From a virus, in UHGV virus genome UHGV-0217794: DNA of 27,591 nt. One strand, written 5' to 3'. Of the stretch, positions 1-12,542 are shown in pieces. Positions within the stretch are counted from its first letter, which is position 1. Each line of letters starts with the position of its first letter. The translations under genes and the position numbers were made by a program. The notes beneath the pieces were generated by a model. It saw nothing but the letters and a program-made list of their open reading frames with translations, was not told the origin of the DNA and searched no databases.

Positions 1-240
1 TGATGTAAAACCGCAAATGGGGCACGTAACGGGAATTTTGAAAAGCGTTTCTCCGGGTTCCAGAACAAAATTTTCTGCGGTCTGATTTTGCTTCTCATAT
101 TTGTGCTCCGCGTCATTGTGAGAGCACATTCTTATTCTGAGTGCCTGTTTAAACTCACTGAAGCTGAGAGCTTCTTCGCCTTCGGCAAGACCTTCGAAGT
201 ATTCTTCGTAAGCCTTTTCCATGATTGTGTCGAAATCCAT
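1..240 (-). CDS. hypothetical leftward early-operon protein, partial (ATG at 238-240, runs off the window edge; at least 80 aa; contains CPICG motif)
   Basis: Open reverse frame from ATG at 240 with AGGTGA Shine-Dalgarno upstream, overlapping the stop of the preceding small ORF; no stop before position 1. Confidence 0.5.
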   Translation of the reverse strand, partial: MDFDTIMEKAYEEYFEGLAEGEEALSFSEFKQALRIRMCSHNDAEHKYEKQNQTAENFVLEPGETLFKIPVTCPICGFTS

Positions 241-241
241 A

Positions 242-397
242 TCACTCACCTGAGTTTCTTTCCAGCCAGCGACGGGCACCATTTTCGGTTTTAAACGTTT
301 TGCTTTTGGTATATGTCATCGCGGTGAACGTACCGTCCTGGTTGGGGAACACGCCACATACCAGAGATTCGCTGTTGCCAAGATCGATAGTATCCAT
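242..397 (-). CDS. small protein, 51 aa (MDTIDLGNSES...), first gene of the leftward operon next to the repressor
   Basis: ATG at 395-397 preceded by GAGG; stop at 242-244; same position and size as the small ydfA-type ORFs beside dicA in Qin-like prophages (positional inference only). Confidence 0.45.
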   Translation of the reverse strand: MDTIDLGNSESLVCGVFPNQDGTFTAMTYTKSKTFKTENGARRWLERNSGE

Positions 398-511
398 GCT
401 GACCTCATTTCCCCTTAACGCCGGGGTCGCGGAACTGTTTGCTGAGAACACCGTGCGGTGTCTTGATGGAAAGTAATTTAGAATAACCTAACACGAGAGG
501 CAAGTGTTTTT

Positions 512-529
512 TGTTAGATTGATCTAACA
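512..529. promoter_or_regulatory. operator-like perfect palindrome TGTTAGA-N4-TCTAACA between the repressor gene and the leftward operon
   Basis: Perfect inverted repeat read directly from the sequence; same half-sites as the palindrome at 1023-1040. Confidence 0.55.
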
Positions 530-565
530 AAAAGAGTGGGCGCAACTAATCACTTGAAAAGAATG

Positions 566-973
566 TTATTTTATTGATTTATTTTTACGCGCTTTAAGCA
601 TTTCTTCGAAGAGTTTGTTGAAGTTTTCTACTCTTGCGCGCATTTCAGACAGCAAGGCTTCCTGCTCGGAAGATGGAAGAGCATCGAATAATTCGATCAA
701 TTCTTTGTGGTTGGGAGTTAGCTCTGTTTCCACATGAAGTTCTTGTGCAGGCACTGGTGCCTTGTCTTCGTCACCAAACATTAGCCATGTAGGTGAGCAC
801 TTCAGAGCATCCGCTAAAGCAAACAATCGTTTTCCGACTGGCTGGGTTTCGTCTCTTTCCCATTGTGAAATTGTGACGTGAGCAACTCCAGCGAGGCGCG
901 CAGCTTCTCGTTGTGTTAAGCGTAATTCTTTTCGTCGCGCCAGAACTCGCTGGCCTAGGGTTCTTGTATCCAT
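566..973 (-). CDS. dicA: HTH-XRE family prophage repressor, DicA-like (135 aa)
   Basis: Translation has the N-terminal HTH (LTQREAARLAGVAHVTISQWER) and C-terminal FALADALKCSPTWLMFGDEDK ... MRARVENFNKLFEEMLKAR, closely matching my recollection of E. coli DicA; same 135-aa length; divergent from a cro-like gene. Confidence 0.9.
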   Translation of the reverse strand: MDTRTLGQRVLARRKELRLTQREAARLAGVAHVTISQWERDETQPVGKRLFALADALKCSPTWLMFGDEDKAPVPAQELHVETELTPNHKELIELFDALPSSEQEALLSEMRARVENFNKLFEEMLKARKNKSIK

Positions 974-995
974 AGTTAGGTAATTCTAATTTTTC

Positions 996-1040
996 TTGAC
1001 TTAGGTATCCCGCGCACAATAATGTTAGAAAAGTCTAACA
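996..1040 (+). promoter_or_regulatory. rightward early promoter (-35 TTGACT 996-1001, -10 AATAAT 1018-1023) overlapped by operator palindrome TGTTAGA-aaag-TCTAACA (1023-1040)
   Basis: Near-consensus sigma70 hexamers with 16-nt spacer immediately upstream of the dicC-like gene; perfect 7-bp half-site inverted repeat overlapping the -10/+1 region. Confidence 0.6.
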
Positions 1041-1053
1041 AGAGGGGGCTTTG

Positions 1054-1281
1054 ATGCTTAAAGTTGACGCAATTACTTTTTTTGGCAGCAAAACAAAGCT
1101 TGCCAATGCCGCAGGAGTGAGACTGGCAAGTGTTGCTGCTTGGGGGATACTGGTTCCTGAAGGTCGCGCGATGCGTCTACAGGAGGCATCTGGCGGGGAG
1201 CTTCAGTATGATCCCAAAGTTTATGACGAATATCGTAAGACGAAGCGGGCGGGGCGGTTGAACAATGAAAATCACTCCTGA
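1054..1281 (+). CDS. dicC: Cro-like regulator, DicC-like (75 aa from ATG 1054)
   Basis: FFGSKTKLANAAGVRLASVAAW ... GRAMRLQEASGGELQYDPKVYDEYRK matches my recollection of E. coli DicC; divergently transcribed from the repressor; AGAGGGGG RBS upstream. Confidence 0.85.
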   Translation: MLKVDAITFFGSKTKLANAAGVRLASVAAWGILVPEGRAMRLQEASGGELQYDPKVYDEYRKTKRAGRLNNENHS

Positions 1282-1786
1282 ACAGGCTCGTGAGGCTCTG
1301 GATGCCTGGATATGTCGACCAGGAATGACACAGGAGCAGGCGACGATATTAATCACTGAAGCATTCTGGGCTTTGAAAGAGCGCCCGAACATCGATGTTC
1401 AGCGTGTCACATATGAAGGTGGCGCGGTTGATCAGCGAGCGCTTAGCGTTAATCGAGTGAAGATATTCGAACGCTGGAAGGCTATCGACACCAGGGATAA
1501 GTGTGAAAAGTTCACAGCGCTAGTGCCTGCAATTATGGAGGCTATCCGGATTAGTGATTTCAGGTTGTATCGTGAGATCAGTGATGGTAAAAGTATTACG
1601 TACATGATCGCCGGGTTAAATAAAGAATATGGCGATGTGGTGGAATCCGGACTGCTTTTTGCAGATCCTGCCGTTGTAGATCGTGAAACTGACGAACTTA
1701 TAGAAAAAGCAATTGCTTTCAAGCTTGCGTATCGACAGCAATACCAACAAAAAGCTGGATGGAATTATGAGTCTTCTTTTTGCTGA
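1265..1786 (+). CDS. putative early regulatory protein (YdaT/CII-like by position), 173 aa
   Basis: ORF overlapping the dicC-like stop, occupying the slot right after the cro-like gene; family assignment is by position and weak resemblance only. Confidence 0.4.
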   Translation: MKITPEQAREALDAWICRPGMTQEQATILITEAFWALKERPNIDVQRVTYEGGAVDQRALSVNRVKIFERWKAIDTRDKCEKFTALVPAIMEAIRISDFRLYREISDGKSITYMIAGLNKEYGDVVESGLLFADPAVVDRETDELIEKAIAFKLAYRQQYQQKAGWNYESSFC

Positions 1787-2732
1787 ACGCCCACTGGTTA
1801 TAAACACGCAGCTGGCAATGAAAATCGGCTTAAACGAAGCCATTGTTTTGCAACAACTGCACTACTGGTTGAGAGATACCAACTCCGGTATGGAATGTGA
1901 TGGTGTTCGCTGGATTTATAACACAACGGAACAATGGCTGGAACAGTTCCCATTCTGGTCAGAGTCAACGTTAAAGCGCGCGTTTGCAAGTCTGAAAACG
2001 CTGGGGCTTTTGCGTTGTGAAAAGCTCAATAAATCAAAGCGCGATATGACCAATTTCTACACGATCAACTATGGGAGCGAGCTTTTAGATGGTGGCAAAT
2101 TGAACGAATCCATCGGTTCAAAATGCGCTGCTCCATCAGGTCAAAATGACACGATGGAAGAGGTCAAAATGAAACGCTCCATTGGTTCAAAACGATCCAA
2201 TGTCATCGGGTCAAAATGGCCTGATGATCTTACAGAGAATACAACAGAGATTACTACAGAGAATAAAAACACTTTTCGTCCGGAAGCTTCGCAACCGGAC
2301 CCGCAGACGACTGAACAGGATTTTTTAACCCGGAACTCCGACGCGGTTGTGTTTAGTGCGAAAAAACGCCAGTGGGGTAGCAGGGAGGATTTGGCGTGTG
2401 CGCAGTGGATCTGGGGGCGGATCGTGGGTCTCTACGAACAGGCAGCCAGTGATGATGGCGAGATCATGCGACCAAAAGAGCCTAACTGGACTGCCTGGGC
2501 CAATGACGTGCGCACAATGCGGATGCTGGATGGCAGAAGCCACAGACAAATTTGCGAAATGTTTGGTCGGGTTCAGCGAGATCCATTCTGGGTAAAAAAC
2601 ATCATGAGCCCGTCAAAGCTCCGCGAAAAATGGGACGAACTGGTCATCCGCCTGGGACGTTCACCTGTACAGCGTTGTGTTAATCATATTTCTGAACCGG
2701 ATACAGAAATTCCGCCTGGTTTCAGAGGATAA
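1767..2732 (+). CDS. replication initiator / replisome organizer (O-like N-terminal domain, DnaT-like C-terminal region), about 321 aa from ATG 1767
   Basis: N-terminal PLVINTQLAMKIGLNEAIVLQQLHYWL motif typical of phage replisome-organizer N-domains; internal direct DNA repeats (iterons) inside the coding sequence; C-terminal RDPFWVKNIMSPSKLREKWDELV resembles DnaT-type C-termini. Confidence 0.7.
   Translation: MSLLFAERPLVINTQLAMKIGLNEAIVLQQLHYWLRDTNSGMECDGVRWIYNTTEQWLEQFPFWSESTLKRAFASLKTLGLLRCEKLNKSKRDMTNFYTINYGSELLDGGKLNESIGSKCAAPSGQNDTMEEVKMKRSIGSKRSNVIGSKWPDDLTENTTEITTENKNTFRPEASQPDPQTTEQDFLTRNSDAVVFSAKKRQWGSREDLACAQWIWGRIVGLYEQAASDDGEIMRPKEPNWTAWANDVRTMRMLDGRSHRQICEMFGRVQRDPFWVKNIMSPSKLREKWDELVIRLGRSPVQRCVNHISEPDTEIPPGFRG
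2112..2275. repeat. putative origin of replication: five direct iterons (core GGT(T)CAAAA(T/C)G at about 2115, 2139, 2162, 2184, 2208; roughly 23-bp period) followed by an A-rich tract with three ACAGAGA repeats (2231-2275)
   Basis: Repeats read directly from the sequence; they sit inside the initiator gene and encode a repeated IGSK peptide, as ori-lambda sits inside gene O. Confidence 0.6.
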
Positions 2733-2772
2733 GTGTTGATTTCAGGTCATGAGGTAATTTTAAGGGGGACTT

Positions 2773-3264
2773 GTGGCAAAAGTTTTTACACAAGAAGAGC
2801 GGGAAAAAATTAAAGGGCAGGTGGTGGAACTCGTGCGCCAGAGCGGTCGTGAGACGTTACGGCAACTGGAAGCTAAAACAGGTGCGACTAGATATCTGAT
2901 GAGCGTTCTTGCCAGAGAGCTGGTAGCCAGTGGCGATGTATACAACTCCGGCTACGGGTTATTCCCGTCTGAACAGGCGCGTAAGGACTGGCAACACGCC
3001 CGCAAAAAACTCTCGAGGGCAAAGGTGAAGAAACCTGCTGTGGTTGATCCGGACCTTATCTGGTCATTACCTGACGGAGAAATACGCCGCTACGACAGTC
3101 GCCTAAACATAATCTGTCGCGAGTGCCGGAAGACTGAAGTTATGCAGCGTATACTCGCATTCTATCAGGGAAATGTTCGATATCTATTGAAGCGACGAGT
3201 AGCGCGCAGGGATAAGAGGGATGGTCCCTTAAAGGGGAGAGCTAATTATCCGGAAGGATTCTGA
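2773..3264 (+). CDS. hypothetical protein, 163 aa (GTG start)
   Basis: ORF with AAGGGGGA RBS upstream of GTG 2773; no recognisable family; sits where a helicase loader (P/DnaC-like) would be in lambda. Confidence 0.55.
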   Translation: MAKVFTQEEREKIKGQVVELVRQSGRETLRQLEAKTGATRYLMSVLARELVASGDVYNSGYGLFPSEQARKDWQHARKKLSRAKVKKPAVVDPDLIWSLPDGEIRRYDSRLNIICRECRKTEVMQRILAFYQGNVRYLLKRRVARRDKRDGPLKGRANYPEGF

Positions 3265-3515
3265 TGATGAACATCGAAGAACTGCGTAAAATTTTTTGTG
3301 AAGATGGCCTCTATGCTGTGTGCGTTGAAAATGGAAATCTTGTTAGTCATTACCGCATTATGTGTTTGCGAAAGAATGGGGCTGCGTTAATTAATTTTGT
3401 GGATGGTCGAGTGACAGACGGATTTATCTTGCGCGAAGGTGAGTTTGTCACTTCATTACAGGCACTGAAAGAGATCGGAATAAAAGCAGGCTTTTCAGCT
3501 TTTGCAGAAGAATAA
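3264..3515 (+). CDS. hypothetical small protein, 83 aa
   Basis: ATG overlaps the upstream stop (TGATG), suggesting translational coupling; no recognisable family. Confidence 0.5.
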   Translation: MMNIEELRKIFCEDGLYAVCVENGNLVSHYRIMCLRKNGAALINFVDGRVTDGFILREGEFVTSLQALKEIGIKAGFSAFAEE

Positions 3516-3581
3516 ACTCATCTACAATCTTGCGCGGGGCTGAACTCCCGCTGAGTAACACCGTGCCACCGGAGAAAACCG

Positions 3582-3860
3582 ATGGCACGCAACGTAAAAT
3601 ATTACAATTCTGATAATTCGCCCGTTCTTGCCTGCACGCACGAGCGGTATTCTCACGCATTCAAGTCTGAATGGTTCCAGCACCCTCCATGCACTGAAGA
3701 GCAGGCTGAATGGATAATTCAGTGTTACCGCAGGCGCGGATACGAGGTTAAGAAAGCCCTTAGTCTCGACTACCGTCACTGGATAATCTCAGTCAGATTG
3801 CCTTACTCCGAACGCCCACCGCGTCCGTCCCGTACATTCCAGCAACGCATCTGGAGGTAA
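3582..3860 (+). CDS. hypothetical small protein, 92 aa
   Basis: ATG 3582 with GGAGA RBS 6 nt upstream; no recognisable family. Confidence 0.5.
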   Translation: MARNVKYYNSDNSPVLACTHERYSHAFKSEWFQHPPCTEEQAEWIIQCYRRRGYEVKKALSLDYRHWIISVRLPYSERPPRPSRTFQQRIWR

Positions 3861-3861
3861 C

Positions 3862-4911
3862 GTGCGGGTATTACTTCGACCTGTTCTGGTACCGGAACTC
3901 GGGCTGGTGGTCGTTAAGCCGGGCCGTGAATCCATGCCGGTATTCCACAATACCCGGTTACTGGTGGAGCCGGAACCGAAAAGCATGCGTAATCTGCCGT
4001 CCGGGGTCGTTCCTGCCGCTCGCCAGCCGCTGGTGGAAGACAAAACATTGCTGCCGTTTTTCAGTAACGCACGGGTGATTCGTGCTGCTGGTGGTGCTGG
4101 TGCATTGTCTGACTGGCTGTTGCGCCATATTAAATCCTGCCAGTGGCCACACGGCGATTATCATCACAGCGAAACCGTCATTCACCGTTATGGTACCGGC
4201 GCAATGGTGTTGTGCTGGCACTGCGACAACCAACTGCGTGACCAGACATCCGAATCACTCGAGCAACTTGCTCATCAAAACCTGTCAGCATGGATGATTG
4301 ACGTCATCGGTCACGCAATAAGCGGTACGCAGGAGCGTGAATTATCTCTGGCTGAATTATCCTGGTGGGCGGTCCGCAATCAGGTGGCGGACGCGCTACC
4401 GGAAGCGGTATTACGTCGTTCGCTGGGGTTGCGTGCGGAAAAAATCCGCTCAATGTACCGTGAAAGCGACATCGTACCGGGAGAGCAGACCGCCACCAGC
4501 ATACTGAAACAGCGCACAAAAAATCTTGCACTGTTGCCTCACGCCCACCAGGAACAACACCCACTACAGGAAAAGACGGTGGTAAGCATTGCCGTTGATC
4601 CTGAGTCTCCGGAATCTTTTATGAAACGACCTAAACGTCGCCGCTGGGTTAACGAGAAATACACACGCTGGGTGAAGACACAGCCGTGTGCGTGTTGTGG
4701 TAAGCCAGCCGACGATCCCCATCACCTGATTGGTCATGGTCAGGGCGGAATGGGGACAAAATCTCACGATATTTTCACGCTACCGCTGTGTCGGGAGCAT
4801 CACAACGAGCTTCATGCGGATCCGCTGGCGTTCGAAGAAAAGCATGGTTCTCAGGTTGATTTAATCTTTCGTTTTCTTGATCACGCCTTTGCAACTGGCG
4901 TGCTTGGGTAA
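3862..4911 (+). CDS. DUF968/YdfU-like protein with C-terminal Cys/His (HNH-like) motif, 349 aa
   Basis: C-terminus CACCGKPADDPHHLIGHGQGGMGTKSHDIFTLPLCREHHNELH; same size and position as Qin prophage YdfU (before rusA and Q); GTG start with GGAGG RBS. Confidence 0.65.
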   Translation: MRVLLRPVLVPELGLVVVKPGRESMPVFHNTRLLVEPEPKSMRNLPSGVVPAARQPLVEDKTLLPFFSNARVIRAAGGAGALSDWLLRHIKSCQWPHGDYHHSETVIHRYGTGAMVLCWHCDNQLRDQTSESLEQLAHQNLSAWMIDVIGHAISGTQERELSLAELSWWAVRNQVADALPEAVLRRSLGLRAEKIRSMYRESDIVPGEQTATSILKQRTKNLALLPHAHQEQHPLQEKTVVSIAVDPESPESFMKRPKRRRWVNEKYTRWVKTQPCACCGKPADDPHHLIGHGQGGMGTKSHDIFTLPLCREHHNELHADPLAFEEKHGSQVDLIFRFLDHAFATGVLG

Positions 4912-4923
4912 AAGAGGTGACTG

Positions 4924-5298
4924 ATGCTCATAGATTTGGTTTTACCTTACCCGCCGACGGTGAACACTTACTGGCGACGCCGTGGCAGCACATATTTTAT
5001 CTCGGAGGAGGGAAAGCGTTATCGCCGGGCTGTGGCGCTTATTGTTCGCCAGCAGCGGCTGAAATTAAGCCTGTCCGGAAGGCTGGCGATAAAGGTGATT
5101 GCAGAGCCACCGGATAAGCGTCGTCGCGACCTGGACAATATCCTGAAAGCACCGCTGGATGCGCTGACGCATGCGGGAGTGTTAATGGACGATGAGCAGT
5201 TTGATGAAATCAATATCGTTCGTGGTCAGCCAGTATCTGGTGGACGTCTGGGGGTGAAGATTTACCCCATAATGCATGAAGAGCAGGTCAAAAAATGA
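4924..5298 (+). CDS. rusA: crossover junction endodeoxyribonuclease RusA (Holliday junction resolvase)
   Basis: 124-aa protein starting MLIDLVLPYPPTVNTYWRRRG with conserved acidic residues (RRDLDNILKAPLDAL); AAGAGGTGA RBS; typical position just upstream of Q. Confidence 0.88.
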   Translation: MLIDLVLPYPPTVNTYWRRRGSTYFISEEGKRYRRAVALIVRQQRLKLSLSGRLAIKVIAEPPDKRRRDLDNILKAPLDALTHAGVLMDDEQFDEINIVRGQPVSGGRLGVKIYPIMHEEQVKK

Positions 5299-6116
5299 AA
5301 CTGGAAGATTTACCGAAATACTACTCCCCAAAATCCCCTTGCCTGACCGATGCATCGGCCTCAACGTCAAAAGATGCGCTGAGTATCACTGATGTGATGG
5401 CCGCGCAGGGCATGACACAGAATCGGGCTGAGATGGGGTTTTCTGCGTTCCTGGGGAAAATGGGCATCAGTATGAATGACAGGGCGCGGGCAACAGAATT
5501 ACTGGCAGATTATGCACTCAGTCGGTGCGATCGTGTGGCGGCGTTGAGAAAACTTCCGGCAGAAATAAAACCGGTAGTGATGCGCATTATGGCTTCGTAC
5601 GCTTTTGAGGATTATGCCCGCAGCGCAGCGAGTAAAAAGCAGTGCCCTTGTTGCTATGGGGAAAAATTTATTGAAAGCGTAGTTTTTACAAACAAGGTCC
5701 AGTATCCGGATGGTAAGCCGCCGGTATGGGCAAAGTGTACGAAAGGTGTGTATCCGTCTTACTGGGAAGAATGGAAAAAAGTCAGGGAGGTGGTAAAAGT
5801 TGCCTGTCCGGAGTGTGGCGGAAAGGGTGAGGTTTCCACCGCCTGTAAGGATTGCCGTGGGCGTGGTGTCGCCATTCACCGTGAAGAGTCGGTAAAACGT
5901 GGTATGCCTGTTATCAGAGACTGCCAGCGTTGTGGTGGTCGTGGCTATGAAAGACTACCATCAACGGAGGCATTTAATGCTATATGCGAGGTGACAAACC
6001 AGATAACACGCGCGTCATGGGAAAAAACAGTTAAGAAATTCTATGATGCGCTGGTGACCCGGTTTGATATTGAAGAAGCATGGGCTGAGCGGCAGTTAAA
6101 AAAGGTAACTAGGTAA
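5295..6116 (+). CDS. late-gene antiterminator, Q family (non-lambda type, multiple CxxC zinc motifs)
   Basis: 273-aa protein with CPCC...C and CPECGGKG...CKDCRGRG...CQRCGGRG motifs; ATGA overlap with rusA; directly followed by a promoter-terminator unit and the late region. Confidence 0.8.
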   Translation: MKLEDLPKYYSPKSPCLTDASASTSKDALSITDVMAAQGMTQNRAEMGFSAFLGKMGISMNDRARATELLADYALSRCDRVAALRKLPAEIKPVVMRIMASYAFEDYARSAASKKQCPCCYGEKFIESVVFTNKVQYPDGKPPVWAKCTKGVYPSYWEEWKKVREVVKVACPECGGKGEVSTACKDCRGRGVAIHREESVKRGMPVIRDCQRCGGRGYERLPSTEAFNAICEVTNQITRASWEKTVKKFYDALVTRFDIEEAWAERQLKKVTR

Positions 6117-6120
6117 CAAG

Positions 6121-6160
6121 GTTGATTTTTCCGGAATCTGTGGTAAATTCATCATAATGA
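6121..6160 (+). promoter_or_regulatory. candidate late promoter (PR'-like) / Q-utilisation region: -35 TTGATT (6122-6127), -10 TAAATT (6144-6149)
   Basis: sigma70-like hexamers directly downstream of Q and about 50 nt upstream of an intrinsic terminator, the lambda PR'-qut-tR' layout; the -10 match is weak. Confidence 0.35.
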
Positions 6161-6198
6161 TGGGCTTTTTATGCCTGACGTTAGAAGAGTTTCTACAA

Positions 6199-6220
6199 CC
6201 CGCCGCCGAGCGGGTTTTTT
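6199..6220 (+). terminator. intrinsic terminator (tR'-like): stem CCCGC/GCGGG followed by six T
   Basis: GC-rich hairpin CCCGCcgccgaGCGGG followed by TTTTTTATT, read directly. Confidence 0.6.
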
Positions 6221-6259
6221 ATTGCGGAATTAATTACGGACCGTTATTATTCTGCTCAC

Positions 6260-6335
6260 GGCCCTTTAGCTCAGTGGTGAGAGCGAGCGACTCATAATCG
6301 CCAGGTCGCTGGTTCAAATCCAGCAAGGGCCACCA
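6260..6335 (+). tRNA. ileZ: tRNA with CAU anticodon, most likely tRNA-Ile2 (lysidine-modified, reads AUA; ileX/ileZ-like); elongator tRNA-Met not excluded
   Basis: 76-nt cloverleaf: acceptor GGCCCTT/AAGGGCC, D-arm GCTCAGTGGTGAGAGC, anticodon loop CTCATAA, T-arm GCTGGTTCAAATCCAGC, 3' ACCA; close to my recollection of E. coli ileX. Confidence 0.85.
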
Positions 6336-6435
6336 TCACAAACCGCCATTAGCTTATCAGGAAGAGCAGACGACGCGATAACAGGGTTGTTGGTGCGGGG
6401 GCGGGTCCCCGATGGCGGTCCATTATCGGTATTCA

Positions 6436-6512
6436 GCGTTGTTAGCTCAGCCGGACAGAGCAATTGCCTTCTAAGCAATCGGTCACTAGTTCGAATCCAG
6501 TACAGCGCGCCA
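6436..6512 (+). tRNA. tRNA-Arg (anticodon UCU, reads AGA/AGG; argN/argO/argU-like)
   Basis: 77-nt cloverleaf: acceptor GCGTTGT/ACAGCGC, D-arm TAGCTCAGCCGGACAGAGC, anticodon loop with TCT, T-loop GTTCGAATCC, 3' GCCA; one mismatch in the T-stem. Confidence 0.8.
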
Positions 6513-6622
6513 TATTCATTCTTCCAGATTCCTTCCGGCAGAGCCTTATACTGAAATATACTTGGCTCAGGATCTTGTTGAAAATATTATATGTTTGTCA
6601 AAAATAAAAGTTCTGTTAAGTA

Positions 6623-6976
6623 TTGATTGAGTGTTTGTTATACCGTCTAATGGTTTTTTCAGCATTAAATATTTATCATTCATATGGTGTGGGTAGAGTG
6701 AATATTGATGAGGCGTCGGGGTGTTTCATCCTTAGGCAGCGTATTGATATAGTCAATGCAGCACGAGCAAAGGCCTTCAGCCGTTTGACAGTTTTGTTTT
6801 GTACTCCTGATCGTCTTTCGGGAAGAGACGTTATTATTCTGAATAGTGATGCTATACAGAGGGTTTGCGATGAGTTCATGGTTGCTAATTCAGAATTATT
6901 TGCTCTTGTTCAGGAGTACAACAGAATAGCCAGGACCTGTGGTATGGATGAACTTCGGATTACTCATCTGGGGTAG
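6623..6976 (+). CDS. hypothetical ORF, 117 aa, doubtful
   Basis: Open frame in the AT-rich moron region but TTG start and no convincing Shine-Dalgarno; may be a gene remnant. Confidence 0.25.
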   Translation: MIECLLYRLMVFSALNIYHSYGVGRVNIDEASGCFILRQRIDIVNAARAKAFSRLTVLFCTPDRLSGRDVIILNSDAIQRVCDEFMVANSELFALVQEYNRIARTCGMDELRITHLG

Positions 6977-7450
6977 ATACATATCTGGATTATCACCTGT
7001 TACGGTAAAAAGTTATTGCTTACTGTTTTTGTGAATGGCATTGCAGCAGCCGGATAATGTCAGTGCTGGCTGACGGTGTGCTGGTGGCGGGTGTGGTGGT
7101 TATTGCTTTCCCGTTGCTGAAAAAGAAAACGCCAGACTGTTAGCCGGGTATCAGTTAGCGGGAGAAATTTTTAAATACTTCACAATTCAGGCGGTTGACT
7201 GTTGTCTGGTTTGCGGGGAGTTTGTTAAAAGAAACTGGCATGGTGAATCCCCCTGTGCGGAGGGGCAATCAGCGAGTAGGTATATGGGATAATCGCGTAT
7301 TCAGGTGCTGGTACTGAATTCACCGGGAGGCACCCGGCACCATGCACTTCAATAGATTCTCTCCACATTATGGATATTCTTTCAGAATATCCCACGCAGA
7401 CTTTGTGTAAATGTTAACAAATGTGCGTTTTATTTGATCTGATTCGCTGT

Positions 7451-7480
7451 TTGAGCGTCCAAAACAACGGTATATATAAT
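7451..7480 (+). promoter_or_regulatory. candidate sigma70 promoter for the lipoprotein moron (-35 TTGAGC 7451-7456, -10 TATAAT 7475-7480)
   Basis: Consensus -10 and good -35 with 18-nt spacer, about 30 nt upstream of the GAGG RBS of the lipoprotein gene. Confidence 0.45.
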
Positions 7481-7509
7481 CCTTTACTATATGACATATG
7501 TGAGGAAAA

Positions 7510-7938
7510 ATGGGTTTTCGTAGCGCATCAATTCTTACGTTGATTATTAGTGGGATTATTATCGGGTGCACTGATGCTGTATCGACAAATTATCATGACC
7601 GTACATCATATTACTCCGATAAAGCAATAGAGACACAGTATGTGAGTTCATCTGAACGTACTTCTGATGTTAGTGAGGATATCCGTCTGTATGCCCATCA
7701 AATCAAGAGCGCCATCGAAAAACAGTTCGGGGATGCGAGTAAGTATTCAGGAAAAGAGTGTACACTGAGAATGCATATGGCCCCGAATGGCCTTCTACTG
7801 GAGGTTAAAAGAGAAAGTGGAGACCTCGATTTATGTCGTGAAGCGATGAATGCGATAAAGAATGCTGATATACCTGCCCCCCCTTCGCCGGAAGTATATA
7901 AAGTATTTCAAAATGGGGTGCTGGATTTTAAACCCTGA
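7510..7938 (+). CDS. lipoprotein with TolA domain-III-like C-terminal domain (142 aa)
   Basis: Signal peptide with lipobox IIGC; C-terminal about 85 aa (YAHQIKSAIEKQFGDASKYSGKECTLRMHMAPNGLLLEVKRESGDLDLCREAMNAIKNADIPAPPSPEVYKVFQNGVLDFKP) aligns residue-by-residue with my recollection of the E. coli TolA C-terminus (YAGQIKSAIESKFYDASSYAGKTCTLRIKLAPDGMLLDIKPEGGDPALCQAALAAAKLAKIPKPPSQAVYEVFKNAPLDFKP). Confidence 0.8.
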   Translation: MGFRSASILTLIISGIIIGCTDAVSTNYHDRTSYYSDKAIETQYVSSSERTSDVSEDIRLYAHQIKSAIEKQFGDASKYSGKECTLRMHMAPNGLLLEVKRESGDLDLCREAMNAIKNADIPAPPSPEVYKVFQNGVLDFKP

Positions 7939-8088
7939 TATTTATTGTTTTGTAATAAACGGTTTCGGCTTAGGTTTGTTCTGACACAACTACGGCACTG
8001 AGCTAAATTTAGCGGATAGTCAGCTCTGAGCCAGTGGCGGACGTAACAACTACTATTGCTGAGATTTTAATGGATTGAGGAGCAAGAA

Positions 8089-8484
8089 GTGGGATTAAAG
8101 AAAATCGTTATGTTGACTTTTTGGGTCGGTTTTGTTGCGGGATGCACACCTTTACACCCTTCAGATTGCCACAAAACTACTGCTACAGGTAGTTGCAGTT
8201 CAGGACGCTGGGATGATCAGGATGAATGGGGGGCGCAAGCGCGGGGAATCAGAGCTGCAATTAATGCCAAACTTGATGAGCCGCATAACTGGAAAGGGAA
8301 AAAATGCAGGTTGCATATGGAATTCTCTCAGGATGGCACGGCGTTAAAAATATCTACCAGTAACGGTGATAAAGCCTATTGCGAAGCGATAAAGTCCGCA
8401 GCTCATAAAGCCAAATTTCCGGCCTTCAACAATCCGGAAGTCTACAGAGATTTTCAGAAATCTGGCTTTGACATGCGAGGTTAG
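8089..8484 (+). CDS. second lipoprotein, divergent paralog of the TolA-III-like lipoprotein (131 aa, GTG start)
   Basis: Signal peptide with lipobox VAGC; C-terminus shares the K-C-L ... G ... GD ... C ... A ... A-FP ... VY ... F ... D pattern with the upstream lipoprotein; GAGGAG RBS 6 nt before GTG. Confidence 0.75.
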   Translation: MGLKKIVMLTFWVGFVAGCTPLHPSDCHKTTATGSCSSGRWDDQDEWGAQARGIRAAINAKLDEPHNWKGKKCRLHMEFSQDGTALKISTSNGDKAYCEAIKSAAHKAKFPAFNNPEVYRDFQKSGFDMRG

Positions 8485-8609
8485 CTCTTCAATTACTATA
8501 TCTCATTCATAGCAAACTGACAGATTTGATGATGTTCTATATACGAAACCTGTGATGTCAAGTCTGAGCTAATACAAATAAACATAATATCAGAGAAATA
8601 CATTTTATT

Positions 8610-8632
8610 AGCTCGCTACGGCGAGCTTTTTA
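8610..8632 (+). terminator. intrinsic terminator closing the lipoprotein moron (stem AGCTCGC/GCGAGCT, loop TACG, T-run)
   Basis: Perfect 7-bp hairpin followed by TTTTTAT, read directly. Confidence 0.6.
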
Positions 8633-8735
8633 TATTGCATCGTCTCCAGCATATATATCAATTATGGCTCTGATTGATGTGTCTGGAAGCCTACACATAA
8701 TAACTATGCCATCCGTTCCGTGCGGAGGTGAGGCT

Positions 8736-8955: not shown

Positions 8956-9300
8956 ATGACTCAAGTATACGAACTGGTTGTGAAAGGAGTCCGTAATTTT
9001 GAGAATAAAGTTGCGGTAACTTTAGCCTTACAGGACAAAGAACGCTTTGACGGTGAGATTTTTGACCTTGATATCACTATGGATCGTGTTGAAGGTGCTG
9101 CACTGGAGTTTTATGAGGCAGCAGCCAGAAGGAGAATCAGACAGGTGTTCTTGGATGTTGCTGCCGGGTTATGTGAAGGGGATGAGCAGTCGCCGGAAAA
9201 GCGCCCCATAATTTTAGAGGCGCAGAATGTGTGGATAACCTACAAAGGAAAGCTACCAGGAAGAATTACTGGTTATCTGAAGACTCCGCCGGAATGTTAA
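8956..9300 (+). CDS. hypothetical protein between holin and endolysin (114 aa)
   Basis: ATG 5 nt after the holin stop with AGGAGAG RBS; unknown function; same slot as Qin ydfR but homology not verified. Confidence 0.55.
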   Translation: MTQVYELVVKGVRNFENKVAVTLALQDKERFDGEIFDLDITMDRVEGAALEFYEAAARRRIRQVFLDVAAGLCEGDEQSPEKRPIILEAQNVWITYKGKLPGRITGYLKTPPEC

Positions 9301-9538
9301 TTTTAACAGCATATTTCTCTTCCAGTAATGCCACCAGCCACTTGAAGGAATTTTGTTGTTCCTGGGACCATTTGGGGCTGTGTGATTCAAGCTGGAGCGA
9401 TGCCAGTGTTGGTTGCATTTGTTCCCTGGGAATTGACAATGCCAGATATGAAAATGCGACAGTAAGGGCATTAACATCATCCCGAAGCCTGGAAATGCAG
9501 TCGAGCAACTCCTGAAGAGAAATGGTGTTATTGTCCAT
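9266..9538 (-). CDS. hypothetical reverse-strand protein (90 aa) inside the lysis cassette
   Basis: ATG at 9536-9538 preceded by a strong AAGAGGA Shine-Dalgarno at optimal spacing; convergent with and overlapping the 3' end of the upstream gene by 35 nt. Confidence 0.45.
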   Translation of the reverse strand: MDNNTISLQELLDCISRLRDDVNALTVAFSYLALSIPREQMQPTLASLQLESHSPKWSQEQQNSFKWLVALLEEKYAVKINIPAESSDNQ

Positions 9539-10475: not shown

Positions 10476-10940
10476 ATGAAACCGGTTCTGTATGCGGTGA
10501 TTGTTATTCTACTGGTGGTCAGTGGTGCGCTGTTGCTGGCAATAGCCCATTACCGCGATAATGCCATCATCTACAAAGAGCAGAGAGATGATGCGAAGAC
10601 AAAACTCAGCCAGGCGAACGCAGCCATTACTGACATGCAGCAGCGCCAGCGTGATGTTACTGCACTCGATGCAAAATACCTGAAGGAATTAGCTGATGCG
10701 AAAGCTGAAAATGATGCTCTTCGTGATGATATTGCCGCTGGTCGTCGTCGGTTGCACATCAGAGCAGTCTGTCAGAGCGTGCGTGAAGCCACCGCCGCCT
10801 CCGGCGTGGGTAATGCAGCCGCCCCCCGACTGGCAGACACCGCTGAACGGGATTATTTCACCCTCAGAGAGCGACTGATAATAATGCAAAAACAACTTGA
10901 AGGGGCACAGCTATACATTCGAGAGCAATGCCTCAGATAA
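10476..10940 (+). CDS. i-spanin Rz
   Basis: N-terminal TM segment then coiled-coil-rich periplasmic domain; contains the embedded +1-frame Rz1 lipoprotein gene; follows the endolysin. Confidence 0.85.
10696..10878 (+). CDS. o-spanin Rz1 (proline-rich outer-membrane lipoprotein embedded in Rz)
   Basis: Signal peptide with lipobox VVGC, PPPPP-rich mature region, fully nested in the Rz gene in the +1 frame. Confidence 0.85.
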
Positions 10941-11257
10941 AAACCGGCCAAGGATAATCCGCTGAAGATTCGCCGGGGCTAGAGAGAGCCAAAGCTTTAA
11001 TTGACACCATTACTCATAGCAAGGCAATGCATCGTTTTTATGAGGTCAATAGATGCCTGATTTATTTCTGTGCTCCGTATCGTCGCTGTATTCCTTCGTT
11101 AACCATGAGTGTAGTCCGACGGGGAGCACGAGTGTATGGGAATAATAAAAAAAGATACACACCTGGGTTTACCGCTTTTATGCTTCGCGGGTTTGCTCTT
11201 CATGCAGCTAGTCCGGTACAGAGGTGTATGAAACCGGACTGCTGATTTAATTAATTC

Positions 11258-11662
11258 CTATATTAATGGTCTGTTATTTTCAACATCTTCCATGTACAAA
11301 AGATCGTGATCAAACGAATAGTAAAACCTTATGTTTTTATCTATATCTGTAATCCAGCGATAAACACCTGCTTTTGCTAAAGTGAGACGATATTGATGAA
11401 ATGTAGATTTACCTGATATAAGATTTCTGGCTGCTTCTTTAATTAATTCTGGTTTCTTTGATGTGCTAACTTTCACAAGTCCTCTACTGCCTCGAACTAA
11501 TAAAATATTATCATCATGAGTAATTAGTCTTATATTATCAGTAGCCAGATAATAAATATAATGCGCAATATTATGGCGTTTTAATTCGGAGTAAAACCAT
11601 GGGAAGTATAAATTACTTCTAACGTGTTCGAATATCTCTTGAAAAATATCTGCCTGCTCCAT
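11258..11662 (-). CDS. hypothetical protein, reverse-oriented moron at the bor-equivalent locus (134 aa from ATG 11662)
   Basis: Opposite strand to all flanking late genes; visibly AT-rich (not computed); AAGAGGA Shine-Dalgarno upstream of ATG; aromatic-rich sequence with no family I recognise. Confidence 0.6.
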   Translation of the reverse strand: MEQADIFQEIFEHVRSNLYFPWFYSELKRHNIAHYIYYLATDNIRLITHDDNILLVRGSRGLVKVSTSKKPELIKEAARNLISGKSTFHQYRLTLAKAGVYRWITDIDKNIRFYYSFDHDLLYMEDVENNRPLI

Positions 11663-11817
11663 CAGGAAATATCCTCTTGTCACTGCTACTTCTTACCATG
11701 AGCTTAGATAGTTTGCATGATTTGTTCTCTCACATCAATCTGATCCGACCTCATTGAGGTGGGCGTTGTGAATACCTGATAAGAAATGTGGGTCCTCCCA
11801 ATGGGGGAGGCTGGCAC

Positions 11818-11829
11818 GGGGCGGGAGCG
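11818..11829. other. candidate cos (cohesive end) site, cosN-like
   Basis: GGGTCCT ... ACG-GGGCGGGAGCGT-CGCGG resembles the lambda right-end/cosN context (GGGTCCTTTCCGG ... ACG-GGGCGGCGACCT-CGCGG) as I recall it; about 190 bp upstream of the small terminase gene. Confidence 0.4.
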
Positions 11830-12014
11830 TCGCGGAAAAAGGCTAGTTTTTGCATTTCCATGGCGGCGGCAGCATGTTTGGTAATTTATTGATAATTAAA
11901 AGTTATTTCCCTTTTCACCTGTACAATATTTTTTTCTTCCTGTCATTAGACCAGTTTGCAATTAATTGAAATATATAAATAAACCTGATTTTCACCTGCC
12001 AGATGGAGTTGCTT

Positions 12015-12542
12015 ATGTCAAATGTGAGCGGGATCGGTGATGCTTATTACTGGAGTGTTTTTAAAATCGCCGAGGCCTTTGGGCTTCACCGGGACACAGT
12101 AAAAAAACGGCTCCTCGCGGCCAACACTCCTGTGGCTGCGACTGTCAGGGGGAACCCCGTTTACGCCCTGCAGCATGTCGGGCCCGCCCTGTTTAGTGTG
12201 AAGCATGAGGGAGCAGACTCTGTTCATGATCCATCCCGTATGGAGCCGAAAGAGAGAAAGGACTGGTACCAGTCTGAAAATGAAAGGATCAAGCTGGAAA
12301 AGGAGCAGCGAAAACTCATCCCAGTTGATGAAGTAGTCATCGTCTATTCGTCCATGAGAAAGGCTGTCGTCCAGGTTCTGGAGACAATTCCGGATGTTCT
12401 TGAACGCGATTGCGCTCTGACTCCTCAGGCCGTCGGCGTTGTACAGCAGGCCATTGATGACCTGCGATACACTCTTCAGGAAAAATCCTACGAGGCTTGT
12501 GCTGCTGAATTAATTCCTGATGAGGAAGGAGAGAGTCTCTAG
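12015..12542 (+). CDS. terminase small subunit (Nu1-like)
   Basis: About 175-aa protein with N-terminal HTH-like segment, immediately upstream of the large terminase; GGAG RBS; start could alternatively be ATG 12003. Confidence 0.7.
   Translation: MSNVSGIGDAYYWSVFKIAEAFGLHRDTVKKRLLAANTPVAATVRGNPVYALQHVGPALFSVKHEGADSVHDPSRMEPKERKDWYQSENERIKLEKEQRKLIPVDEVVIVYSSMRKAVVQVLETIPDVLERDCALTPQAVGVVQQAIDDLRYTLQEKSYEACAAELIPDEEGESL

Follow-up and report, generated by a model that had tools for sequence, protein, structure and literature searches.

The closest described relatives of the gene analysed here belong to the DUF1398 family (Pfam PF07166), which includes the lambda open reading frame (ORF) lambdap78, YbcV of the DLP12 prophage, YdfO of the Qin prophage and the chromosomal YcgX (b1161), encoded next to bluR, bluF and iraM. 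A literature search yielded no functional study of the family or of its members YbcV, YdfO and YcgX. The lambda gene was non-essential by CRISPR interference (PMC10695390), ycgX was noted as a prophage-like gene beside bluR (PMC3509220) and was de-repressed in an hha/ydgT mutant (PMC3686432), and ydfO was induced approximately 100-fold by an imidazolium ionic liquid (PMC4077768). Published data also show transcription and regulation of ybcV and ydfO, the K-12 paralogues located in cryptic prophages (PMC7660256, PMC4077768). Here, a minus-strand gene at positions 11258-11662 of the virus genome UHGV-0217794 was analysed; the stretch of 27,591 nt is referred to as the window. A previous annotation made from the letters of the window alone (the sequence-only reading) had described this gene as an AT-rich moron of unknown function in a slot equivalent to that of lambda bor. 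The results show that it is a rare, divergent YcgX-type allele of a catalogued family, located in the usual place.

The encoded protein of 134 amino acids (aa) matched Pfam DUF1398 with 139.5 bits (E=6.8e-41, gathering cut-off 22), and its residues 8-126 were aligned with profile positions 1-119 of 119. A sequence match was also obtained to the nuclear magnetic resonance structure of E. coli YdfO (2HH8; E=3.5e-40), which was the sole match when the sequences of the Protein Data Bank were searched with the family profile. The AlphaFold2 model generated from 19 homologues (predicted local distance difference test 91, predicted template-modelling score 0.84) comprised two alpha-alpha-beta3 repeats and showed the fold of the solved member YdfO. 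Consistent with these matches, the RefSeq name for the identical protein WP_025238988.1 is 'DUF1398 family protein'. The sequence-only reading had called the function unknown, and none has been published, but the protein itself can be classified as a full-length DUF1398 member with a solved homologue.

The family core, defined as L27, an A-x-AGV-x-[KR]-W motif and a Y-x-Y/F strand, is present in the window protein as L27, A96-K-A-G99-V-Y-R-W103 and Y35-I-Y-Y38. Three residues alone, L27, G99 and W103, are identical in all family members compared, and no conserved polar or catalytic-looking position was found. The BFVD search with the model returned nothing significant, no PADLOC-DB v2 family was matched at E up to 10, and NCBIfam gave nothing meaningful. 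PHROG 413, which carries the label 'head protein', was matched with E=2.8e-47. The DUF1398 identity and the architecture of the cassette described below are near certain.

The coding sequence (11258-11662, minus strand) begins with MEQADIFQ, ends in ...EDVENNRPLI and belongs to the YcgX-type subfamily. Direct reading of the sequence placed the Shine-Dalgarno motif AAGAGGA at 11672-11678 (minus strand), 9 nt 5' of the ATG, and the ACAAGAGG...CCTGATG arrangement was kept 5' of ycgX and of the other 134-aa alleles. An alternative in-frame GTG at 11683 would give 141 aa and would overlap the AAGAGGA site. The ATG of the 134-aa ORF is used by all homologues and the RefSeq annotation is a coding sequence of 405 nt, so that the ORF and ribosome-binding site named in the sequence-only reading were confirmed from the sequence, the RefSeq record and the starts of the homologues. 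The N-terminus, MEQADIFQEIFEH, is acidic and contains neither a hydrophobic stretch nor a lipobox; because of this acidic, non-hydrophobic N-terminus, a signal peptide is considered absent, as the same reading had stated.

The lower GC content of the gene, also remarked upon before, was borne out by calculation (0.316 versus 0.50-0.54 in the flanking genes). The GC content at third codon positions (GC3) was 0.237, and the GC/GC3 values were 0.514/0.484 for the left neighbour Rz/Rz1 (10476-10940, plus strand), 0.515/0.534 for the right neighbour, the DUF1441-type small terminase gene (12015-12542, plus strand), and 0.541/0.550 for the large terminase gene, with 0.509 as the GC content of the whole window. 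Low GC (0.32-0.38) is common to the whole enterobacterial clade of the family and is not peculiar to the window copy. Every allele examined was intact at 134 aa and could be aligned without gaps. Five synonymous and two non-synonymous differences separated the window gene from its two closest alleles (ratio of non-synonymous to synonymous substitution rates, dN/dS, 0.10), and the comparison with ycgX gave a dN of 0.23 and a ratio of about 0.10, with dS saturated. The intactness of all alleles examined and the dN/dS of about 0.1 identify a real gene rather than a chance ORF, maintained by purifying selection, and no disruption of the kind expected of a pseudogene was seen.

Next, the 5' regions of nine alleles were aligned, namely those of the window, ycgX, a cryptic Escherichia clade (beside yedF), Citrobacter (beside icd), the P0023 prophage, ybcV, ydfO, lambda p78 and phage Tritos. 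The alignment contained a conserved block, GGTCAGACCAGATTGAAG-N17-CAAACTAC, ending 31-46 nt 5' of the ATG, and the window version of the block is GGTCGGATCAGATTGATG-N17-CAAACTAT (11750-11709). Within it, the conserved element GATCAGATTGATG-N-CAAACTA occupies 11709-11745 on the minus strand. This 37-nt core occurred as one copy in the window and in 0 of 100 shuffles, and was present once in each of the 22 fetched loci, within approximately 70 nt upstream of the DUF1398 start. Among the IMG/VR contigs with a downstream ORF, that ORF was DUF1398 in 118 of 119. In diverged pairs of alleles, the mean pairwise identity of the 47-nt element (75.6%) was higher than that of the coding sequence (66.6%) and that of the immediately upstream sequence (46.6%). 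The element accompanies the gene through at least five different genomic contexts, and in ycgX and the chromosomal alleles P0004 and P0012 the cassette lies away from any cos site.

Neither a conserved RNA structure (RNAalifold) nor a relevant Rfam match was found for the upstream element. An RNA element in the 5' region was rejected for these two reasons, and the conservation is instead read as that of a promoter or operator acting at the DNA level. The putative promoter core on the minus strand would consist of a sigma-70-like -35 hexamer TTGATG (11738-11733), a 17-nt spacer and a -10 hexamer CAAACT (11715-11710), in which the critical A and T (positions 2 and 6) are retained. Transcription would then start near 11704.

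The left part of the element coincides exactly with the PdhR boxes listed for ybcV/ybcW and ynfO/ydfO (PMC7660256): the box AtcTGGTctgACCtcTT equals the ybcV element in reverse complement, and the box AAcaGGTcagACCAgaT equals that of ydfO. In the same study, ybcV mRNA was 10-fold lower in a pdhR mutant (PMC7660256). The corresponding sequence of the window is a degenerate PdhR-box-like core, GGTCGGATC, at 11742-11750 on the minus strand (family consensus GGTCAGACC).

The gene and its 5' region form a cassette of approximately 550 bp (11243-11789, minus strand), as delimited by comparison with collinear prophages that do not carry it. Two blocks of the E. coli CE10 prophage (L167) are homologous to window 11071-11239 and 11790-11861; they are spaced by 105 nt there, compared with 550 nt in the window. 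Because the slot is empty in this collinear prophage, the cassette represents a genuine insertion or deletion difference, that is, a moron, and the gene is at the same time distinct in composition from the neighbouring genes. In a prophage of ST131, the slot is occupied by different cargo, namely a DUF6979 gene and small ORFs. The megablast homology to many other prophages resumes at about 11787, a shared mosaic breakpoint.

The linear records of phages Tritos and cdtI have left ends that align from window position 11819 with 98-99.6% identity. Since these records begin at 11819, cosN was placed at 11819-11830 (plus strand; GGGCGGGAGCGT), and by this placement the DUF1398 gene lies at the extreme right end of the virion DNA. 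This cosN resembles lambda GGGCGGCGACCT. The gene is located 157 nt from cosN and is antisense to both Rz and the terminase genes.

Comparable arrangements were seen in other phages and prophages. Lambda, HK629/630, DE3, Tritos and ev099 all have minus-strand homologues near the right end. The order is rzpD, borD(-), ybcV(-), ybcW(+), ylcI(-), nohD in DLP12 and Rz, cspI, csp, ynfN, gnsB, ybcV(-), ybcW and then the right end in Tritos. The ydfO gene of Qin is flanked by the packaging gene nohA on one side and by the gnsB/cspI block on the other. In prophages with the P0023 allele (54% identical), which have an M15-peptidase endolysin in place of lysozyme, the gene is antisense between Rz and a small terminase gene of the Nu1 or DUF1441 type. 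Among the IMG/VR contigs retrieved via the upstream element, the antisense slot between the lysis genes and the small terminase gene was found in 120 of 120; a co-oriented DUF3950 gene was often present upstream and a co-oriented bor downstream, neither of which is in the window.

The window allele is rare, with at least 95% DNA identity in 9 of 20,395 E. coli records. Its nearest common relative is the chromosomal ycgX, with full-length matches at about 70% DNA identity in approximately 5,000 of 5,426 E. coli genomes and the ycgX annotation on every sampled full-length row of those matches. Both proteins have 134 aa and align without gaps at about 64% aa identity, and they have in common the C-terminal ...EDVENNxPLI tail, the arrangement of the ribosome-binding site, the upstream element and AT-richness. 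They differ in that ycgX has a fixed place in the chromosome, next to the e14 prophage, whereas the window allele is prophage-borne next to cos, has a 12-nt insertion in its 5' leader and carries a more degenerate PdhR-like box. The second subfamily, to which YbcV of DLP12, YdfO of Qin and the lambda ORF (J02459 47066-47452, minus strand, between Rz and the right end) belong, consists of proteins of 136 aa with about 46-51% aa identity, ending in ...TESIQxTTQIxPx. Its genes are usually accompanied by a co-oriented bor and/or DUF3950 gene (ylcI/ynfO) and by ybcW, all of which are absent from the window. Overall, the DUF1398 alleles are strongly diverged (46-66% aa identity).

An exhaustive hidden Markov model search of 1.84 billion cluster representatives yielded only 274 clusters at E <=0.001, many of them fragments, and the distant matches included proteins of 129-131 aa and one tandem double-domain protein. 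A second search seeded with the distant match P0264 yielded 413 proteins, in which the named ones were chromosomal and came from Flavobacteriia, Chitinophagales and Saprospirales. These Bacteroidota homologues are chromosomal singletons in unrelated neighbourhoods; one adjoins HicAB and an HNH gene, and the other contexts are housekeeping-like. In the more distant clade of Kluyvera, Salmonella diarizonae and Raoultella the gene is located in islands and the upstream element is absent. Deducing a function from gene neighbourhoods was accordingly given up.

Bor and Lom are the classic morons expressed from the lysogen. Like bor, the window gene is a composition-deviant accessory gene, probably dispensable for lytic growth, in the antisense region between Rz and cos. 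Bor, however, is a secreted outer-membrane lipoprotein with a serum-resistance phenotype, and the DUF1398 protein has no similarity to it in sequence or fold. A Bor-like lipoprotein was rejected because the Pfam search of the window protein gave no Bor match and neither a signal peptide nor a lipobox was present, which agrees with the previous statement that the protein does not resemble Bor. The idea of a bor-equivalent slot was correct as to the position between the lysis genes and cos, but the gene does not replace bor: the slot is that of lambda p78 and ybcV, since lambda has its own homologue and DLP12 carries borD followed by ybcV.

In most viral contigs, the DUF3950 genes (ynfO, ylcI) lie directly upstream of DUF1398 and are co-oriented with it. 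In Qin (L040 4257-4958), ynfO and ydfO are in one reading frame, 57 nt apart, and a 233-aa DUF3950-DUF1398 read-through product (P0035) heads a cluster of 761 member sequences. These observations hint that DUF3950 and DUF1398 are functionally linked.

Taking the locus as a whole, we lean towards an accessory gene that has its own transcription and encodes a small binding protein of the cytoplasm as a reasonably probable explanation. Transcripts of the DUF1398 gene alone would originate at the conserved upstream element and would not depend on the late operon driven by Q, and the weak sigma-70-type core would be overlapped by an operator-like palindrome of the GntR/PdhR type. Expression would be set by host regulators and the state of the cell (PdhR and/or regulators of the Hha/H-NS type), not by the late antiterminator of the phage. 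Given the conservation of the element, its coincidence with the PdhR boxes of ybcV and ydfO and the published regulation of ybcV, ydfO and ycgX, such autonomous and host-regulated transcription appears likely. The product would be a small soluble alpha/beta protein of the cytoplasm, which probably acts through a binding partner (protein, nucleic acid or small ligand) rather than by catalysis, because no catalytic residues are conserved across the family. The gene would not be needed for lytic growth, because lambdap78 is non-essential by CRISPR interference (PMC10695390), and may benefit the lysogen under certain conditions, much like the small 'connector' regulators whose genes adjoin the chromosomal paralogue ycgX. 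A general cellular role rather than one in the virion is suggested by the chromosomal singletons of Bacteroidota and by the presence of ycgX-type genes in most E. coli genomes. The part of this explanation that concerns a non-enzymatic binder benefiting the lysogen is our best guess and is put forward tentatively.

Several results weigh against this explanation. The upstream element was not reported by a generic promoter scan, the hexamers of the putative core promoter are weak, with matches at only 4/6 and 3/6 positions, and no intrinsic terminator was found 3' of the ORF. The PdhR-like box of the window has ACC changed to ATC in one half-site and agrees with the consensus at approximately 8 of 14 positions by hand count. 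According to a review of transcription in lysogens, the lambda genes expressed in the lysogen are cI, rexAB, lom and bor only (PMC7067206); since p78 is omitted there, the prophage would not be expected to express DUF1398 constitutively. For ycgX, a 2025 survey of hypothetical proteins of E. coli arrived at no inference (PMC12356324). In addition, the papers found ascribe a single phenotype to YdfO, and it stems from a mix-up of gene names with YfdO: resistance to oxidative stress upon YdfO overexpression is claimed in PMC4077768 citing Wang et al. 2010 (PMC3105296), which reports on YfdK, YfdO and YfdS of the prophage CPS-53 and whose main text is silent on ydfO.

The sequence-only reading had suggested a conversion or anti-phage factor, and a prophage factor for superinfection exclusion or defence, acting in the lysogen against incoming phages, has to be weighed accordingly. 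The gene is accessory and deviates in composition, its presence differs between collinear prophages, its slot also holds bor and other cargo, its alleles are highly diverged and one Bacteroidota homologue stands beside HicAB and an HNH gene, all of which would suit such a factor. However, no PADLOC model was matched, the product is a single small protein without conserved catalytic residues, the remaining Bacteroidota contexts resemble those of housekeeping genes, selection is purifying and not diversifying, and no published phenotype was found. The ycgX-type paralogue, moreover, is present in approximately 5,000 of 5,426 E. coli genomes, unlike the patchy genes of defence systems, and p78 is missing from the review's list of lysogen-expressed genes (PMC7067206). 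We therefore regard an anti-phage role as unlikely, and the earlier suggestion remains a prior expectation only. The proposal of a HEPN-type RNase toxin fared worse. The RHNIAH string (Rx4H) does exist at residues 29-34, yet R29, H30 and H34 are each substituted in close homologues (KHHRIAHY in YcgX, KRQNIAYY in a Citrobacter allele and KRHNVSLY in others) and the motif is missing from distant members of the family. In the predicted model it spans the end of helix 2 and strand 1 of an alpha/beta fold, not an all-alpha-helical one, and there was no HEPN match. A HEPN nuclease was rejected for these reasons, and its probability is negligible.

Lambda-type virions inject their right end first, and a gene at this end could be transcribed by the host RNA polymerase before circularisation and serve as an early anti-defence or take-over factor. 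The cassette is situated some 70 bp from the right cohesive end and is oriented inward, the gene and the promoter-like element (11709-11745), which is of the host sigma-70 type, would be intact on the linear right end (cosN 11819-11830), and the cos-adjacent position and inward orientation were seen in 120 of 120 viral contigs. On the other hand, the same cassette is found away from cos in ycgX, P0004 and P0012, lambda can do without p78 in the laboratory, the promoter seems weak and dependent on a regulator, and library and structure searches showed no similarity to known anti-defence proteins, which makes an entry function very improbable. A virion or lysis-related structural protein is less probable still and can hardly be entertained. 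It is suggested by the PHROG 413 label and by the name 'putative envelope protein' in several phage records, which in lambda-derived records refers to lambdap78, but the labels 'head' and 'envelope' appear to be propagated annotation and were judged to be artefacts. Furthermore, the gene is antisense to the late operon and non-essential in lambda, its product has neither a signal peptide nor a membrane segment, and homologues are chromosomal outside prophages and in Bacteroidota. The protein is not known to be among the lambda virion proteins.

A more far-reaching form of the favoured explanation, that of a self-transcribed gene for a small binding protein, is speculative and rather improbable. 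The cassette may be a portable module wired to host regulators through the PdhR-type operator and the weak sigma-70 core and kept at the end of the virion DNA that enters first, and its product may bind a target of the host or of a rival phage upon entry or in particular metabolic states of the lysogen. If this were true, DUF1398 would be a new class of phage-host interaction protein (anti-defence, exclusion or metabolic 'connector') and ycgX a domesticated copy.

The left boundary of the moron is formed by a conserved, apparently structured non-coding element of approximately 175 nt in the Rz-cos spacer (11069-11242, plus strand, lying between the stop codon of Rz and the 3' end of the DUF1398 ORF), which is not part of the cassette. 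Copies with 70-77% identity were present in 2,755 of 5,426 E. coli genomes (a maximum of 10 in one genome), and also in prophages without DUF1398. For 17 non-redundant copies, RNAalifold and pair counts gave a multi-stem consensus of 37 pairs with 97.9% of cells paired, a structure that was derived from the same alignment as was used for the pair counts and in which variation is limited. Compensatory changes occurred in 5 pairs, including GC to UA in 5 sequences, and several U-G to U-A/C-G exchanges keep pairing only on the plus-strand RNA, that is, the late transcript. Rfam contained no match for this element (E up to 1). We regard it as a lead, as it may represent a structured RNA of a new kind or a signal involved in packaging. 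A 72-aa plus-strand ORF over the element (11027-11245) matched phrog_6954 'Rz-like spanin' with E=3e-10; its homologous copies differ by 1-nt indels and it has no RefSeq annotation. It was not accepted as a gene because each reading frame is interrupted in at least one of the 17 copies of the element, and it probably belongs to a spurious ORF family called over conserved non-coding DNA.

A second antisense ORF, of 90 aa, was found inside the lysis cassette (9266-9538, minus strand), where it overlaps the 3' end of a DUF1327/YdfR-like gene (8956-9300) and precedes the lysozyme gene. It matched phrog_2411 over its full length (E=3e-53), a group of unknown function; it had no Pfam match and is 'hypothetical' in RefSeq. 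This ORF may be another small moron. The previous description of the DUF1398 gene as opposite to all flanking late genes thus holds for Rz and the small terminase gene on the plus strand, but the late region contains this further antisense ORF.

Over positions 10900-12100 the window is matched perfectly by L001 (NZ_CP059003), and it is otherwise mosaic relative to that record. Window 482-3199 and 3198-4904 match L001 with a 3.9-kb L001 segment containing ABC-three-component genes missing in between, window 4905-8708 (the Q/antiterminator region) has no megablast match to it, and from 8709 onwards the identity is 98.8%. The ABC-three-component and lipocalin genes of L001 were not attributed to the window, since collinearity with L001 is lacking over window 1-8708.

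In summary, the gene at 11258-11662 is, for annotation, a routine DUF1398 gene already named by RefSeq, and flagging it as a HEPN toxin or as a replacement of bor is unwarranted. The boundaries of its cassette reveal, next to it, a conserved, apparently structured non-coding element of lambdoid late regions, which is absent from Rfam and may deserve more attention. Lambda-like prophages commonly carry DUF1398 at a cos-adjacent spot together with a conserved promoter-like element, and the gene and an upstream element of 37-47 nt constitute one conserved cassette common to ycgX, ybcV, ydfO, lambda p78 and the window allele. The coincidence of this putative promoter element with published PdhR sites provides a testable handle on the expression of four uncharacterised genes, ycgX, ybcV, ydfO and lambda p78.

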